Both the position numbers and the translations under genes were made by a program. A stretch of DNA of 64,000 nucleotides from positions 19,588-83,587 of the forward strand of contig CASSLW010000005.1 in assembly GCA_949443285.1 (NCBI GenBank), in the 5' to 3' direction. How positions within the stretch are numbered: the stretch's first letter is position 1; each line of letters begins with the position of its first letter. The notes below the pieces were generated by a model, which was not told the DNA's origin, ran no database searches, and worked only from the letters and a program-made list of their open reading frames with translations. Shown here one piece after another: positions 305 through 61,808 of the stretch. Origin of the DNA: an uncultured Clostridia bacterium. Lineage in GTDB: Bacteria; Bacillota; Clostridia; TANB77; CAG-508.

Positions 305-337
305 ATGATGCATTTTCCCTCTGTCCCAAAAATGATT

Positions 338-1273
338 TTACATACCTAATAATTTTAATTCTACATCTTCCATTTTATATTTACCATCAACAAGTTTAAA
401 CTCAACCAAAGTACTCTCCAAAGTCTCCTTATTTTGTCTCAAATCAGTTGTAAAATACAACTTAATTTGTGGTATTTCAACTTGTTTAGTTATAATCTCT
501 TTAAAAGTCTCCTTCATATGCATTTCATCTTCACAAATCAAAATCAATTGTGGCATTGTTGAAAAACCAGAATCACCTTGTACAAAATTCTCATAAAAGT
601 CTTTATACAATCTCATTTTATCAACAAGCTTCTTTTCCCAGTCTGGCTCTCTTCTAACAGCTTCAAATACAAATTGAATTGTTTTTCCGTTTTTTGTTAG
701 TTTTACTCCACCACCTGTTGCTTTAAATATCTTTCCTGCTACTTTTGCTGTAAGCGCTGGTTTTACTACATAGCTATCAAAAGCTTTTACTTTTCTTAAA
801 TAAGCTATTAAAGTTTGGTTTCCAGCTAGTCTTTTCTTTATCATTGCTACTGGTTTTGTGTTATCAGAAGGTTGCCATTTACATTCTACTTCTTTTGAGT
901 TTAATAGGTATTTTCCCATTTTTTCCATACAATAAATTCTGTAAATTCCTTTTCCTTCTTCTGATGTAAAATAATATCTTGTTAATATTTTTGATTTTAC
1001 TAATTGCTCTAATTTATTATTTAATTTATCTTGTGATTTTGGGTCTATTCCTTTTATTTCAAGCATTTGGAATAGTTGTCTTGATGTGATAAATTCAAAT
1101 TCATTTACTAAGTCTAATATTGCAAAGTGAATTTCGTTTATATGACCAATGTTTATCTTATGTACTATTTGGTTCATTGACACGTATCCGTCTTTTCCGT
1201 CAAATGTTTTGATTTCTCCTTCTCTTATTGCAAAAGGTGATACTTGTGCTTTTATGTTATTATCTTCAACCAT
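338..1273 (-). CDS. hypothetical protein, possibly replication-relaxation family (N-terminal winged helix)
   Basis: 311-aa ORF with normal composition. The N-terminal INEIHFAILDLVNEFEFITSRQLFQML resembles the wHTH of Replic_Relax proteins. This assignment rests only on recalled pattern similarity. Confidence 0.45.
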   Translation of the reverse strand: MVEDNNIKAQVSPFAIREGEIKTFDGKDGYVSMNQIVHKINIGHINEIHFAILDLVNEFEFITSRQLFQMLEIKGIDPKSQDKLNNKLEQLVKSKILTRYYFTSEEGKGIYRIYCMEKMGKYLLNSKEVECKWQPSDNTKPVAMIKKRLAGNQTLIAYLRKVKAFDSYVVKPALTAKVAGKIFKATGGGVKLTKNGKTIQFVFEAVRREPDWEKKLVDKMRLYKDFYENFVQGDSGFSTMPQLILICEDEMHMKETFKEIITKQVEIPQIKLYFTTDLRQNKETLESTLVEFKLVDGKYKMEDVELKLLGM

Positions 1274-1301
1274 TTTTGTTCTCCCTTCTAGAACTTTAAT
1301 T

Positions 1302-1808
1302 TTATACTATTAATAATTTAACCTTTTTCTTTTCTCTATCAATTTTTTTGATGTATACATCTACATCTTGTCCATATTGATAGCCTTCTTGGTACTCTGC
1401 CATTCCTACTAAGTTTGGTGTAAGTTCTATAAATATTCCGTTTTTGTTTTTTTCTGTTTCTCTTATTTTTCCTTTTACTTTGATGCCTTGTGTGAATTTT
1501 TCAGCATTCTCTTCCCAAGTTCCTAGTGTTTCTTTATATGATAATAATATTTTGTCTTGTTCCCTGTCAATATATTTTACCACAACATCCACTTTTTGTC
1601 CAATTTTTAGTCTTTCGTATGGTGTTTTTATTCTTGCTACCGACAAATCTTTTATATGCACTAATCCTACTTTTCCATTTCCAATGTCCACGAATGCTCC
1701 ATATGGCTTTATATTCTTAACTTTTCCTTCAACTTTTTGTCCAACTTTTAACTCTTCATTTACAGTGCTATCAATCACTTCTTGATGTTCAAACTTTCTT
1801 GTAATCAT
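1302..1808 (-). CDS. S1 RNA-binding domain protein (two S1/OB repeats)
   Basis: GQKVEGKVKNIKPYGAFVDIGNGKVGLVHIKDLS and a second S1-like repeat. Confidence 0.8.
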   Translation of the reverse strand: MITRKFEHQEVIDSTVNEELKVGQKVEGKVKNIKPYGAFVDIGNGKVGLVHIKDLSVARIKTPYERLKIGQKVDVVVKYIDREQDKILLSYKETLGTWEENAEKFTQGIKVKGKIRETEKNKNGIFIELTPNLVGMAEYQEGYQYGQDVDVYIKKIDREKKKVKLLIV

Positions 1809-1849
1809 TTGTTTTTCTCCTTTTATCTTATGTTTGTTTTATTATATCT

Positions 1850-59192: not shown

Positions 59193-60320
59193 ATGAGTGT
59201 AGAATCAGATTTAAAAAAAGATGGAATAGAAGTAGTAAACAAATTAGACACATTAAGAATAAACTCACTAGCAAGAGCTGTATCTACTAAATTATGTGAA
59301 ACTTTTCCTGAGTTCAATTTAGACCAAAATGAATTATTTATAAAGCTATCTAGATTAGATATGTATAAAGCCAAAATGCCTGAAGGCATGGCAGAAGCAA
59401 ATTACTTTTATAAAAACACTTCAATATATTTTAATGAACACATACAAGACGAAGACTTAGAAGAATTTGCAATTCACGAATGTATACATTATCTTCAAGA
59501 AGTAAAAGATAAAAAGAACACTTTAATAAGAATGGGACTTTGCGATTATACAGAATTCAAAATTTATGGATTAGGCTTAAACGAAGCAGCTGTACAGCTT
59601 ATGGCTTCTAAGGTTAATGCTATTCCAAAAGAGTTTGTAAAATACTTCGGAATTAGTTTTGAAACCAATAGCCCTTCTTACTATCCTTTGGAATGTTGTT
59701 TAGTAAATCAAATGGCATATCTTGTAGGAGAAAACCTTTTATTTAAGAGTACTTTAAATAGTGATGATGATTTTCAAATTAAGTATTCTCAAATCACTTC
59801 TCCAAAAGTTTTCTTATCAATTCAGGGAGCTATTGATGATATTATTAACGCAGAAGAAGAAATTATCAAATTAAATAATAGAATTGCTACTGTTGACGAT
59901 AGGAATAAGAAAGTTGATACGATGTTAAAGAAGATTGATGAGCTTAAACATGAAATTGCTTTGACTTTTATGAGAACTCAAAATCTTATAATTTCTAGTT
60001 ATTTTGATAGTACTTTTGCTACTATTACAAATTTGGAGGAAGTTGAAAATTATAGAAAGAAGTTGTATTCTTTTAAAGATTATTTAGGCTATGTTGACGG
60101 ATATACTTTCTTTAATGATTATTATGTGAGTAAAATGGAACAATTGGAAGAGAAATATAATGCTTTGGAAAATGGAGAGACTTTGGTTACTGCTCTTAAG
60201 GTTGTTTCTAAGAAAGAAAATAAATTTGTAGCTTTTCTTAAAGCAATTAAGAGATTGTTGTTTCATGAAAATTCAGAAAAATCTTTTGATGTATTTGGGG
60301 ACGGAGCAAAAAAACATTAG
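59193..60320 (+). CDS. hypothetical protein with an HExxH motif (possible Zn-metallopeptidase fold); the last 10 codons are contributed by a repeat arm
   Basis: EFAIHECIHYLQE. The C-terminus ..DVFGDGAKKH is encoded by 60288-60317. Confidence 0.5.
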   Translation: MSVESDLKKDGIEVVNKLDTLRINSLARAVSTKLCETFPEFNLDQNELFIKLSRLDMYKAKMPEGMAEANYFYKNTSIYFNEHIQDEDLEEFAIHECIHYLQEVKDKKNTLIRMGLCDYTEFKIYGLGLNEAAVQLMASKVNAIPKEFVKYFGISFETNSPSYYPLECCLVNQMAYLVGENLLFKSTLNSDDDFQIKYSQITSPKVFLSIQGAIDDIINAEEEIIKLNNRIATVDDRNKKVDTMLKKIDELKHEIALTFMRTQNLIISSYFDSTFATITNLEEVENYRKKLYSFKDYLGYVDGYTFFNDYYVSKMEQLEEKYNALENGETLVTALKVVSKKENKFVAFLKAIKRLLFHENSEKSFDVFGDGAKKH

Positions 60321-60430
60321 TTGAAACTTTTTGAGGCAGGTCAAAAAAATTTTAAAAATGAGCCAATAAAAAAACACATGTATGATGTGTTTTTTTATTG
60401 ATGTTTTTTTGCTCCGTCCCCAAATACATC
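60288..60430. repeat. perfect 30-bp inverted repeat of the GTCCCC family (copy L) bracketing an internal bidirectional terminator
   Basis: gatgtatttggggacggagcaaaaaaacat at 60288-60317 and its exact reverse complement at 60401-60430. An inner hairpin acacat/atgtgt has flanking A- and T-runs. Confidence 0.85.
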
Positions 60431-61691
60431 AATTATACTTTTAGCTGCCTCTCTTCCTGAGTTTGCAGCCCAAGCAACAGTACCCTTTATTCCAGCTAAA
60501 TCTCCGCCAGCATAAATTTTATGGTTAGATGTTTGGTATTCCTCGTTTATTGCAATATTTCCCCATTTATTTAGTTCCAAACCTAAATCTTTTACAAATT
60601 GTTGTGGCTTAGAACCTAAGGCCATTACAATATAATCAATTTCAATTTCGTAGTTGCTACCTTCTATATTAACTGGTACTAGCCTAGTTTCGCCTTCTTT
60701 TGGCTTTAATTCTGTTTTTATTAACTCTACTCTTTCTACCTTTTCATTTCCTAGTATTTTTACAATATTATTTTGAAATAAAAATTCAACATTTTCTTCA
60801 ATTGCTTCTTCTATCTCTTTATCTTCTGCTGGCATTTGTTCTCTTGCCCTTCTATAAATAACTTTTACTTCTTCTGCGCCTAAGTGCTTTATTGTTCTTG
60901 CACAGTCCATTGCAACATTTCCACCGCCTATTACAGCTACTTTTTTGCCTTTATAATCTGGGTGTAAATTGTATTCTAATAGCTCGTTTCCGCCATAAAC
61001 TCCTTGCAGATTTTCTCCTTCTACTCCCATTTTTGAAGATATATTTGCTCCTATTGATAAAAATATTGCATCATATTGATTTTCTAGTTCTTCTAATTTT
61101 ATTTTTTTTCCTAGTTCTTGATTGTATTTTACTTCAATTCCTAGGTCTAATATATTATTTACTGTTTTCTCAACTATCTTTTTATCTAGCCTGAACTCTG
61201 GAATGCCATGTACTAATAGCCCACCTAAGTAATCATATTTTTCATATATTGTAACTTTAATTCCGTTCCTTTGCTAGAAAAGCTGCTGCTGTTAGACCTG
61301 CTGGTCCGCCACCAATTACAGCAACCTTTTTATTTGCTTTTTCTGAATTTGAACCCGCATCATTTTCTGTTTCTTCGCTATTAGTCCAACATTTTTTTAA
61401 GCTTTCATTTTGTTCCATAGCCTTATCAAACACTAAAGCTTCTAACTCTCCTATTGAAACAGGTTCACCTTTTATCCCCCTTACACAAGAGCCTTGACAT
61501 TGCTTTTGATGCGGACAAATTCTTCCACATACTCCTGGCAATACTGTAGTTCTACTTAATATTTTATATGCTTCTTTATAATTTCCTTGTTTTACTTGTT
61601 CAATAAATGCTGGTATATCGTTTTGTAACGGACATCCTTTTAATGAACATGGTTTTACTTTACAATTTAAACAGTAATTCGCTTTTTCCAT
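60395..61691 (-). CDS. glutamate synthase small-subunit-like NAD(P)H oxidoreductase (GltD/PreT family), interrupted at an in-frame CGG-A (61263-61265)
   Basis: Cys clusters CLNCKVKPC..CP..GVCGRICPHQKQCQGSC, VAVIGGGPAGLTAA. The junction restores FLAKE-G-IKVTIYEKYDYLGGLLVHGIPEFRL. The second Rossmann motif is VAVIGGGNVAMD. Confidence 0.8.
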
Positions 61692-61720
61692 AATTGCCTC
61701 CTTTTATATTATATGGTGTT

Positions 61721-61808
61721 TTAGGGACAGACCTAAAATTCATCCTAAAACAGATGTGTCCCAAAATGGACATTTTGTCCATTAGGAAACGTCCCCAAAT
61801 GTCCCAAT
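61721..61808. repeat. GTCCCC-core element (copy M, includes a 50-nt subfamily unit) overlapping the udg stop
   Basis: ttagggacagacctaaaa ... gtgtcccaaaatggacattttgtccattaggaaacgtccccaaatgtccc. Confidence 0.75.

Follow-up and report, generated by a model that had tools for sequence, protein, structure and literature searches.

TIRtrons, described by Di Nocera et al. in 2013 (PMC3733652), combine TIRYT genes with flanking repeats that bear the motif GGGGWSAS and that these authors termed TIRs. The TIRYT type corresponds to RAYT group 1 (Bertels et al. 2017, PMC5581495), and Quentin et al. (2018, PMC6006769) equated TIRtrons with TnpAY1 subclass 2.1 and found no REP-like structures near subclass 2.1 genes. 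Another described family, the CGTC REPs, lacks an associated transposase and combines 8-9-bp stems and 4-5-nt loops with a tag at one end and a CCA tail (PMC3733652). With a probability of about 0.8, we read the repeats of the window (the whole 64-kb stretch of DNA analyzed here) as REP/BIME-like non-autonomous DNA elements, scattered copies of a hairpin repeat that stands in inverted orientation on both sides of a TIRYT-type Y1 (HUH) tyrosine transposase gene. Because the repeats flank such a RAYT-like ssDNA transposase gene in related genomes, and because they match the TIRYT/TIRtron class with its GGGGWSAS motif (PMC3733652, PMC6006769), the hairpin family adds a Clostridial member to a known, little-studied class and does not represent a new kind of element. 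The first-pass annotation had suspected REP/BIME-like hairpins under selection for folding, recognized through a conserved loop and served by a RAYT-type transposase, for which support was found outside the window, and had considered the motif unlike any family known to its reader, a view that the match to TIRtrons contradicts.

The repeats stand out clearly from the background. In the window, the count of GTCCCC is 17, where 4.97 +/- 2.24 are expected (17 was reached in 0 of 100 shuffles), and that of GTCCC is 55, where 24.3 are expected. The motif was present at all 13 loci originally listed. Stems of at least 5 bp enclose 62% of the 34 GTCCC cores inside these loci and 14% of those elsewhere in the window, while swapping 3' flanks between units left 33% of cores enclosed (maximum 53% in 500 permutations). 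A covariance model (R1), to which the window contributed only 6 of the 84 units, recovered with filters off 19 window matches at E <= 0.03, all within the known loci; at this threshold no match in the window fell outside them. Among the listed loci, the copy at 305-340 is marginal and that at 48346-48384 only a degenerate fragment. The copies are as follows.

309..335, minus strand: single weak unit, stem CATTTT/AAAATG, plus-strand loop CCCTCTGTCCCA, directly behind the stop codon of ORF 338-1273(-); R1 12.9 bits, E 0.16.
5264..5397, no single strand: BIME-like array of four alternating TTGCCA/TGGCAA-stem units and one AACTTTTT/AAAAAGTT unit (5371-5397-), between the SSB gene and ORF 3534-5207; R1 matches 5265-5291+, 5298-5324- and 5331-5357+, E 5e-9 to 4e-4.
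9864..9945, no single strand: palindromic pair with TGTCCA/TGGACA stems and GAAAC cores and a trailing partial unit, between two TauE-family ORFs and adjoining the ribosome-binding site of the downstream ORF; R1 9865-9891+ and 9898-9924-.
10417..10470, plus strand: type A copy, AGATGTGTCCC-AAAG-TGGACA-AAA-TGTCCA-AAAG-GAAATGTCCCC-AAA-TGTCCC, cores outside the small hairpin, one-base overlap with the TAG stop of the MgsA C-terminal ORF; R1 matches weak, E 0.06 and 3.9.
12376..12429, plus strand: type A copy, identical to the 10421 copy at 47 of 50 bases, directly after the TAA stop of ORF 12430-12984 and upstream of ruvA; R1 E 0.48.
15345..15462, no single strand: array with TGGCAA/TTGCCA stems, comprising an open core (GGAGTGTCCCC), two direct 33-nt units (15366-15392+, 15399-15425+) and an inverted unit (15432-15458-), between convergent genes; best R1 match 34.2 bits, E 3e-9.
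39953..40012, no single strand: palindromic pair (39953-39979+, 39986-40012-) in the divergent promoter region of a P-type ATPase gene and mntP.
40620..40670, minus strand: single unit with GTGCCA/TGGCAC stem, enclosed by a terminator-like hairpin AAAAACCAG...CTGGTGTTTTT where mntP and smc converge; R1 40631-40656, E 0.009.
48346..48384, minus strand: degenerate remnant of a type A head, reading ATGTGTCCCAATGGACA on the minus strand; R1 non-significant, E 9.3.
49730..49798, no single strand: two units with stems GATGCATTTT/AAAATGCATC and GATGTTTTT/AAAAACATC (49732-49758+, 49770-49796-), the second providing the last codons and stop of mfd; R1 E 3e-7.
56409..56461, plus strand: type A variant with the second core closed by TGTCCAA/TTGGACA, in the divergent region upstream of leuS; R1 56433-56458-, E 0.002.
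60288..60430, no single strand: two inverted GATGT...ACATC-type units (60290-60316+, 60402-60428-) that bracket an ordinary terminator between convergent ORFs; R1 E 4e-5 each.
61716..61808, no single strand: small unit TTTTAGGGACAGACCTAAAA (61716-61753+), then type A (61757-61808); R1 61769-61803-.

The basic unit spans about 29-33 nt and consists of a stem of freely varying sequence and a loop with GGGGAC-GGWCC or its complement, a core that can also be written GGGGAC-GG(A/T)(C/T)C. Units are arranged as singles, many with A/T runs beside them, as palindromic pairs, and as tandem arrays with a 33-nt period. Folded as ssDNA, single units reach -7 to -13 kcal/mol (z -3.5 to -7.3), those of 49730..49798 folding at -12.8 and -6.9 kcal/mol, and inverted pairs reach -23.5 to -26 kcal/mol (z -8 to -10); the pair at 9864..9945 forms a single long hairpin (-23.5 kcal/mol, z -8.1) and that at 39953..40012 folds at -26 kcal/mol (z -10.2). 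The claim that a stem encloses the loop core describes most copies but not those of type A (10421, 12380, 61757), which are built as core, small hairpin (TGGACA/TGTCCA), core, with the GAAAC-GTCCCC core lacking a closing stem and with weak R1 scores (E 0.06-0.5). The related claim of compensatory stem changes gains support from the many stems of the metagenome loci described below, whereas the variety within the window amounts to about three discrete subfamilies more than to free drift.

A 20-mer from the units matched more than 110 stretches from about 20 uncultured gut Clostridia MAGs, and the hairpin family fills uncultured low-GC MAGs of this kind. In 899 kb, of which 14% is non-coding, 54% of GTCCC occurrences are intergenic, compared with roughly 10-20% for unrelated control pentamers. 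Unit number and presence vary between closely related genomes, as revealed at orthologous sites flanked by genes for 95-100% identical proteins. One such site holds 1 unit in L047 and 3 in L050, a difference of exactly 66 nt; another (L069/L105) differs by a 125-nt insertion with no duplication; and a third has an ordinary terminator in L070 and a unit pair in L083. The ortholog of the 5264..5397 array (L063) has one 33-nt unit more and one loop flipped, and that of the pair at 39953..40012 (L100) keeps the first unit and not the second. At the site of 15345..15462, L111 has a different gene and no array; at that of 40620..40670, an ordinary terminator stands in L033 and shares its outer stem, CCAG/CTGG, with the window copy; and at that of 61716..61808, L024 lacks the type A part and retains only a decayed small unit.

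As the first-pass annotation had correctly stated, no transposase (RAYT) gene lies in the 64-kb window (tblastn). Y1/HUH transposase genes flanked by inverted units were found at three MAG loci (L034:979-1782, L068:4087-4827, L030:4342-5130), and the MAG transposase genes are all arranged as GGGAC core, gene, GTCCC core. All three match Pfam Y1_Tnp, the first two at 1e-9 to 3e-9, and the proteins of these two score 65-66 bits with NCBIfam REP_Tyr_transpos, below its curated cut-off (80), and 17 bits with the IS200 model (cut-off 55). The HUH and Y-x3-NP motifs are invariant, and an HTH is weakly detected in the C-terminal extension (HTH_28 E 0.11). BLASTP against published TIRYT and RAYT sequences (PMC3733652 supplement) gave 82-120 bits to four TIRYTs (pca 3049, dau 2153, tkm 1558, gbm 2474), 56-98 bits to three further TIRYTs and 28-50 bits to classical RAYTs; TIRYT aba 3477 reached only 40-59 bits, inside or near the classical RAYT range. 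By sequence, the MAG transposase groups with TIRYTs (RAYT group 1, TnpAY1 subclass 2.1) and not with classical RAYTs. Three transposase clades correspond to three unit subfamilies: L034/L068 go with TGGCAA stems, L030 with type A and L115 with GGTGTTTTT/AAAAACACC stems. The window holds all three subfamilies, and its own genome is predicted to encode, or once to have encoded, up to three TIRYT-type paralogues outside it.

Since the three MAG loci come from loci picked for containing units, they carry an ascertainment bias that is removed only by an independent sample of 80 metagenome loci chosen by protein homology alone, 58 of which were scored for flanking cores. An upstream core in GGGAC orientation was present in 41 of the 58 (opposite orientation in 2) and a downstream core in GTCCC orientation in 43 (opposite in 9); the full layout of GGGAC core, gene and GTCCC core occurred in 36, against 9% of random windows. 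The flanking units share the loop GGGGACGG(T/A)(T/C)C, with GGGGACGGTTCT conserved, and the 80 loci hold 46 distinct stems. Stems of at least 5 bp enclose 45% of the cores versus 7% with permuted partners, and 0 of 300 permutations reached the observed 45%.

The Clostridial system resembles TIRtrons (PMC3733652) in its protein, which has far higher similarity to most published TIRYTs than it has to RAYTs and shares the HUH and Y-x3-NP motifs and C-terminal extension, in the placement of a low-copy gene between inverted repeats containing GGGGAC(A/G)(C/G), and in the scattering of repeats as singles, dimers and clusters. It differs in that its repeat takes the form of a hairpin whose stem varies freely and whose loop carries the conserved motif, in that position 7 of the main core GGGGACGG deviates from GGGGWSAS, in its host, a Firmicute lineage listed in neither survey (PMC3733652, PMC6006769), and in the high density within the window (about 20 units in 64 kb) of three co-resident subfamilies. 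With the classical REP/BIME (REPIN) and RAYT/TnpAREP system of E. coli (Messing 2012, PMC3479197) it shares palindromic units of 20-40 nt that lie mainly outside genes and close to their 3' ends, inverted pairs, clusters and in-frame intragenic copies, a REPtron-like layout, a Y1 enzyme of the kind that acts on ssDNA, and one enzyme clade per repeat subfamily. However, the Clostridial units have no 5' GT(A/G)G guide at the hairpin foot, their conserved sequence of 10-12 nt lies within the loop, and the transposase belongs to another clade. The core also recalls CGTC-tagged REPs (PMC3733652), since it contains CGTC/TGTC (..CCGTCCC..) and head-to-head dimers predominate, but the geometry is different and the Clostridial units do have a transposase. 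A Y1 HUH enzyme and sub-terminal hairpins recognized as ssDNA also characterize the ends of IS200/IS605 elements and the PATEs derived from them; there, the ends are direct on one strand, the IS moves as a unit and is present in multiple copies, and a lagging-strand bias exists, none of which was seen for the Clostridial units. Unlike IS608, the units show no replication-strand bias by GC skew or majority gene strand (type A 9:7 and single units 28:27 by GC skew).

The units may be mobilized by the enzyme. The transposase would bind the hairpin in single-stranded DNA, recognizing it through the conserved loop, and would cut and rejoin nearby, so that units could be copied, excised, and stacked side by side or into other hairpins, terminators among them. 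Palindromic pairs and unit flips would result when the arms recombine or when replication switches template from one arm to the other, and many copies may now also serve as bidirectional terminators or 3' mRNA hairpins. The mechanism of E. coli TnpAREP is not simply transferable because the conserved motif is in the loop, and not at the 5' foot as in characterized REPs.

The window copies may be relics, spread by a past TIRYT since lost and persisting as terminators or mRNA 3' hairpins. The missing transposase gene, the decayed copies (48346-48384, 305-340 and in L024), the unit pair of L083 in place of an ordinary terminator, the unit within a terminator-like stem at 40620-40670 and the A/T runs flanking many single units all agree with this possibility, which we nevertheless consider rather unlikely: a gene present once would be expected to fall outside any one stretch of 64 kb, copies such as 10421 and 12380 are near-identical, and intact flanked genes persist in several related MAGs with the same subfamilies. 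It is very improbable that the units are host-selected intrinsic terminators or structured RNAs with a strand-specific RNA function unrelated to transposition. They do form strong hairpins, often with A-runs and T-runs and mostly just behind stop codons (median distance to the upstream stop, 35 nt), but the orientation check proposed earlier found both orientations relative to transcription (167 to 108), 52 cores are in divergent promoter regions, and in-frame copies occur inside tilS. Moreover, loops of 11-17 nt suit terminators poorly, the units match no Rfam family, and it would be left unexplained why, in dozens of unrelated contigs, a Y1 transposase gene is flanked in a fixed inverted arrangement.

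A further proposal takes the units as double-stranded binding sites, the GGGAC/GTCCC core (sometimes the palindrome GGGACNGTCCC) acting as a classical terminal inverted repeat that is bound by the transposase through its HTH tail or by a DNA-binding protein of the host, with hairpin potential incidental. Some cores are perfect palindromes (GGGACAGTCCC, GGACTGTCC), the TIRYT C-terminal extension is weakly HTH-like, and Di Nocera et al. (PMC3733652) described the flanks as TIRs. We find the proposal improbable, given that the commonest core, GGGGACGGTTCT, is non-palindromic and that the arms covary yet differ completely between lineages, as the metagenome stems reveal and as expected of a folded single strand and not of a duplex. 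In-register arm pairing (81% versus 38-48% with slid partners) points the same way, although partly in a circle, units having been picked for stems. Finally, MITEs, or pieces left by a conventional (DDE) insertion sequence or by an IS200/IS605 element, would also be short, rich in inverted repeats, dispersed and polymorphic, and fragments of this kind with target-site duplications had been named at the outset as what would undo the first interpretation. Filled and empty orthologous sites show no such duplications, arrays grow by 33-nt units, the 1577 ORFs of about 900 kb include no multi-copy transposase, the units beside the gene are inverted while IS200/IS605 ends are direct, and the transposase falls far below the IS200 cut-off, so that this origin deserves hardly any credence.

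The position of the units relative to genes is less strict than had been claimed. Copies described as always outside genes or at their very ends are indeed mostly intergenic, but they are not strictly extragenic because three ORFs end inside units (Mfd 49762-53217, 59193-60320 and 60395-61030). Both units of 60288..60430 encode an identical ORF tail, ...DVFGDGAKKH.

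The core motif was present at all 13 loci listed in the first-pass annotation of the window, and its frequency exceeded what composition predicts. GTCCCC occurred 17 times in the window against 5 expected, with no shuffle as high, and GTCCC 55 times against 24, a count that was likewise unmatched by any shuffle. Within the 13 loci, stems of at least 5 bp surrounded 62% of the cores, compared with 14% of the window's other GTCCC copies; the enclosed share was 33% when 3' flanks were exchanged among units. The potential of this established repeat family to fold was considerable: single units treated as single-stranded DNA reached -7 to -13 kcal/mol (z -3.5 to -7.3), and inverted pairs formed one long hairpin of -23.5 to -26 kcal/mol (z -8 to -10). 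A covariance model whose 84 training units came mostly from other genomes (78) was run over the window with filters off. It returned 19 matches at E <= 0.03, and since all 19 fell inside the listed loci and none outside, the original list, about one locus per 5 kb, is essentially complete. Pair counting on the unit alignment gave 81% paired cells versus 46% when shuffled and 38-48% when slid. These counts are circular, the units having been selected for possessing stems, and serve as supporting evidence only; they also understate pairing, because MAFFT could not bring arms with different linker lengths into register. The unbiased evidence for the covarying stems comes from the permutation tests, made both on the 13 window loci and on metagenome loci.

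The commonest unit, 5'-TTGCCA-AAAA-GGWCC-GTCCCC-nn-TGGCAA-3', measures about 29-33 nt. In related sequence, 41 copies of this kind of unit stood alone and 15 pairs formed palindromes, alongside many tandem arrays that repeat every 33 nt; some arrays start with an "open" core that has no 5' arm. The copies in the window are distributed among subfamilies as follows.

Subfamilies of repeat units in the window, by position
5264, 15345, 39953, 40620: TGGCAA/TTGCCA stems
9864, 10421, 12380, 56411, 61757: type A, TGGACA/TGTCCA stems with a GAAAC core
305, 49730, 60288, 61716: GATGnTTTT/AAAAnCATC-type stems with GCTCC or CCTCT cores

The earlier description of a stem that encloses the core suits most copies but not the 53-nt type A element, which is organized as core-hairpin-core, its cores lying outside the small TGGACA/TGTCCA hairpin. 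The two descriptions coincide in arrays because arms and cores alternate there.

A 20-mer from the units matched over 110 stretches of the genome collection, every one of them from uncultured low-GC Clostridia MAGs of human, mouse, rabbit and other guts. The distribution is intergenic and free of orientation. In 899 kb, 54% of GTCCC occurrences were intergenic though 14% of the DNA is non-coding, and unrelated control pentamers in the same sequence were roughly 10-20% intergenic. Genes neighbouring the cores could be co-directional, convergent or divergent, and with respect to transcription the cores pointed either way (167:108). Tests of strand bias against transcription, the majority gene strand and GC skew revealed no useful bias, and the absence of a bias with GC skew or majority gene strand argues against a strand-specific RNA function.

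Turnover of the units was evident when 135 orthologous intergenic regions were compared between MAGs, with elements in both members at 31 and in one alone at 27. Particular sites (L numbers denote related MAG or metagenome stretches) illustrate the changes. An orthologous site of L047 and L050 carried one unit versus three, exactly +66 nt; at a second site, L070 and L083 held an ordinary terminator versus a unit pair; and at a third, where a ribosome-binding site follows a stop codon, L069 and L105 differed by 125 nt inserted between the two without any duplication. At one orthologous site we found a tight pair (4 bp) in L031 (5758-5874), a pair 52 bp apart in L003 (6895-7015) and arrays about 470 bp apart in L021 (2451-3035). 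Compared with the window, L063 was longer by one unit at 5264-5393 and had a loop flipped there, L024 was without the type A element of 61757-61808, and in place of the unit at 40620-40670 L033 had an ordinary terminator that shared the outer stem.

Two further arrangements were noted. The non-coding spacer of about 470 bp at L021 2451-3035 has inverted ends of its own (GGAAGATGTGTACAATTTTATT...). A YhgA/Rpn-type (Transposase_31) gene followed by the motif ATTCGACAATTTTCGACA occurs both at window 47588-48384 and at 3332-4734 of the related stretch L022; 3' of the motif, the window has a type A fragment alone and L022 a TGGCAG-type pair together with a GATGTGTTTTT unit.

The first-pass annotation had likened the repeats to REP/BIME elements and their RAYT transposases while reporting no RAYT gene in the window, and we also found no transposase homologue within these 64 kb. 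When 1577 ORFs (about 900 kb) were clustered for paralogues, no multi-copy transposase emerged, the top clusters being ABC, XRE, SpoVA, MFS, LRR and pilin-like proteins. It took a motif search for HUH and Y..NP in related MAGs to recover Y1 ORFs, two in number, and tblastn added a third.

Y1 transposase genes in related MAGs, from motif search and tblastn
L034, 979-1782
L068, 4087-4827
L030, 4342-5130

The L034 and L068 proteins match Pfam Y1_Tnp at 1e-9 to 3e-9, and the motifs N73-H74-x-H76 and Y134-I-H-x-N-P do not vary across the 10 sequences aligned; the test covered the genes of relatives (L034, L068, L030). A C-terminal extension of about 100 aa carries a conserved ISYR..ISRE.LR motif, with weak Pfam matches to HTH_28 (E 0.11) and HTH_DeoR (E 0.13). 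The association of these genes with the repeats is fixed: in all 10 loci inspected, the gene lies between inverted units, with a GGGAC core before it and a GTCCC core after it, so that the analogy with REP and RAYT proved right. TGGCAA-stem units flank the L034 and L068 genes. The L030 gene is divergent, sharing about 30-36% identity with these two, and stands between a pair of complete type A elements. The L115 stretch, which represents a third clade, has flanks of GGTGTTTTT/AAAAACACC units that match the third subfamily.

The same architecture was recovered from loci chosen by protein alone. Metagenome contigs were searched with the protein alignment only, which provided 58 loci with both flanks, on contigs of 25% to 56% G+C and with proteins 26-50% identical to the query. 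The upstream core was in GGGAC orientation at 41 of the 58 (opposite at 2) and the downstream core in GTCCC orientation at 43 (opposite at 9). Both oriented cores were present at 36 of 58 loci, compared with 9% of random windows of the same contigs. The loop is conserved despite the divergence, 82 of 214 cores being GGGACGGTTC, and the loci display 46 distinct inner stem arms. Cores lay inside stems of at least 5 bp in 45% of cases; permuting the partners lowered this to 7%, and 0 of 300 permutations attained the observed share.

RAYT-like genes flanked by GGGGWSAS inverted repeats instead of GTAG REPs were described by Di Nocera et al. (PMC3733652), who introduced the names TIRYT and TIRtron and observed that some of the repeats are moderately abundant families, arranged as dimers and clusters. 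In Quentin et al. (PMC6006769) TIRYTs are equated with TnpAY1 subclass 2.1, the RAYT group 1 of Bertels et al.; these authors describe C-terminal HTH or DnaA_C-like tails and report finding no REP-like structures beside subclass 2.1 genes. Subclass 2.1 is the second largest of TnpAY1. Neither survey describes REP-type repeats with tyrosine transposases in Firmicutes, and a search on TIRYT, TIRtron and GGGGWSAS returned nothing beyond these two studies in the literature library used. Using the TIRYT and RAYT sequences in the supplement of PMC3733652, BLASTP scores of the Clostridial proteins were 82-120 bits against four TIRYTs (pca 3049, dau 2153, tkm 1558, gbm 2474). Three other TIRYTs gave 56-98 bits, and one more, aba 3477, stood apart at 40-59 bits. 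Scores against the classical RAYTs eco b228, pfs 3939 and sml 2816 were 28-50 bits. Since the proteins are far closer to most TIRYTs than to classical RAYTs, the system belongs to the TIRYT kind, and as in a TIRtron the gene is flanked by terminal inverted repeats. With respect to the GGGGWSAS consensus, the GGGGACAG and GGGGACAC variants fit, whereas the most frequent ones, GGGGACGG(TTC/ACC/TCC), do not follow it at position 7.

The units resemble classical REP/BIME elements in being short, palindromic, high in copy number, mostly extragenic and grouped in inverted pairs and clusters. However, two defining features of classical REP/RAYT are absent. The units have no GTAG or GTGG at the hairpin foot, where the role of GT(A/G)G in E. 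coli TnpAREP is documented (PMC3479197), and their conserved bases (GGGGACGG..) lie in the loop. Nor does the transposase reach the curated RAYT level: the L034 and L068 proteins score 65-66 bits on the NCBI REP-associated tyrosine transposase model NF047646, below its cut-off of 80. Membership in the CGTC-REPs is ruled out by different geometry. An IS200/IS605 element or PATE is very unlikely, given 16.7 bits against a cut-off of 55 on the IS200 model NF033573, no paralogues in about 900 kb, and inverted flanks. The first-pass annotation had raised the alternative of fragments of an IS or MITE with target-site duplications; orthologous filled and empty sites show no duplications and the changes consist of whole 33-nt units, which speaks against a MITE of a DDE transposon.

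Readings that invoke RNA or a protein-binding site were considered as well. At gathering threshold Rfam returned no family for the repeats in the window, its only match being RT-14 elsewhere, and at permissive thresholds it gave chance-level miRNA and snoRNA matches alone (E > 1), so that a known structured RNA is rejected for want of any match to a curated model. A full-text literature search with the core strings yielded chance matches in unrelated papers and nothing else. The sequence TGGCA-N6-TGCCA evokes a sigma-54 promoter, but its spacing is one base short and the stems of the other subfamilies are unrelated. Loops with GGA of the CsrA or TwoAYGGAY-like kind are rejected in turn: ACGGAC is found in one core variant only, the cores take both orientations, and Rfam gave no match. 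Uptake-sequence-like or restriction-site (GGWCC, GGGAC) readings leave the covarying arms and the flanking of transposase genes unexplained.

The repeats are real. They constitute a new Clostridial family within the known but sparsely studied TIRYT class, and are not a new kind of element. To that class they add a Firmicute host lineage with high repeat density, the resolution of the "TIR" into a hairpin with conserved loop and free stem, and three co-resident enzyme-repeat pairs, the enzymes being seen in relatives. By analogy with Y1/HUH biochemistry, the enzyme would act on the folded single strand, cutting and rejoining nearby so that units spread and stack, and the pattern of conservation suggests recognition through the loop. 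Use of units as terminators is plausible, judging by their position, their A/T runs and the L070/L083 replacement.

A possible reading, at a probability of roughly 0.4, is that TIRYT/subclass 2.1 enzymes share one conserved substrate across very different genomes (25-56% GC), a 10-12-nt loop GGGGACGGTTCT on a stem of arbitrary sequence. If true, recognition would be unlike the 5' guide-tetranucleotide rule of IS200/IS605 and TnpAREP and nearer to the nick sites in hairpin loops of Rep proteins. Gut Clostridia would then be hosts in which a TIRYT system reached REP/BIME-like density, with three enzyme-substrate pairs evolving in parallel. Most is known about REP-type repeats and tyrosine transposases in Proteobacteria, where they are well studied; the related loci link repeats to the poorly understood TIRYT clade, offer it a concrete candidate substrate (a hairpin with a GGGGACGG(T/A)(T/C)C loop), and provide a natural experiment in which three enzyme clades are matched to three stem types. 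In practice the units break short-read assemblies, mimic terminators and confuse the annotation of gut MAGs.

Units also put in-frame peptides into proteins, as in TilS and the Mfd tail. Three ORFs end inside units (window 49762-49800, 60288-60320 and 60395-60430). The convergent ORFs at 60.3 kb both end in the unit-encoded tail DVFGDGAKKH, and in mfd the same kind of unit is read in another frame (...FLMFLGTEQKNII). The tilS genes of L034 (~760-790) and L068 (~3840-3910) contain whole 33-nt units in frame, the unit length being a multiple of three; the added peptide KNCQKGPSP(M/V)A, located between the PP-loop and the AHVNH motif, is present in one copy in L034 and as two tandem copies in L068.

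The window itself has 30% G+C, a strong purine skew and nearly all genes on the minus strand. Its genes are ordinary chromosomal ones (ruvA, mgsA, two TauE-family ORFs, GH94 glucan synthase, smc, mfd, SpoU methylases, leuS, P-type ATPase), with a Replic_Relax/SSB block at the left end. The segment 1309-9192, which includes the SSB gene, is 88.6% identical to L063, compared with 72-86% to any MAG for the rest of the window; it may be a shared mobile element, because the Replic_Relax ORF (338-1273) adjoins it just to the left. The conserved genes mgsA, P-type cation ATPase and GH94 cyclic glucan synthase are each split in two ORFs by apparent frameshifts (regions 10470-11706, 37221-39927 and 15465-23310; mgsA breaks at ...ERKDGL / GEYNIKIEE), and are either pseudogenes or the outcome of errors in assembling a low-coverage metagenome contig. 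The sole contig found for a window protein, L001 of an ENA metagenome, is identical to window 44849-55277, so that the source is an uncultured organism, and adds no information on the repeats. After 10.4 kb of identity it runs into unrelated higher-GC sequence (L001 1-607 versus window 55278-55884). The junction, in a shared 60-nt stretch at the end of an HD-domain gene and with no repeat unit there, reflects either a rearrangement or a chimeric join made in assembly.

The region 32381-35579 of the window is a probable diversity-generating retroelement with the following components.

32381-32544, minus strand: RT-14 RNA (Rfam, 96.9 bits)
32693-33301: short RVT_1-like ORF
33279-33650: bAvd accessory gene
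34131-35579: prepilin-type protein of 482 aa, upstream

Paralogues of this prepilin-type protein occur in related MAGs, five of the eight cluster members being in the mouse-gut MAG CAOPES.
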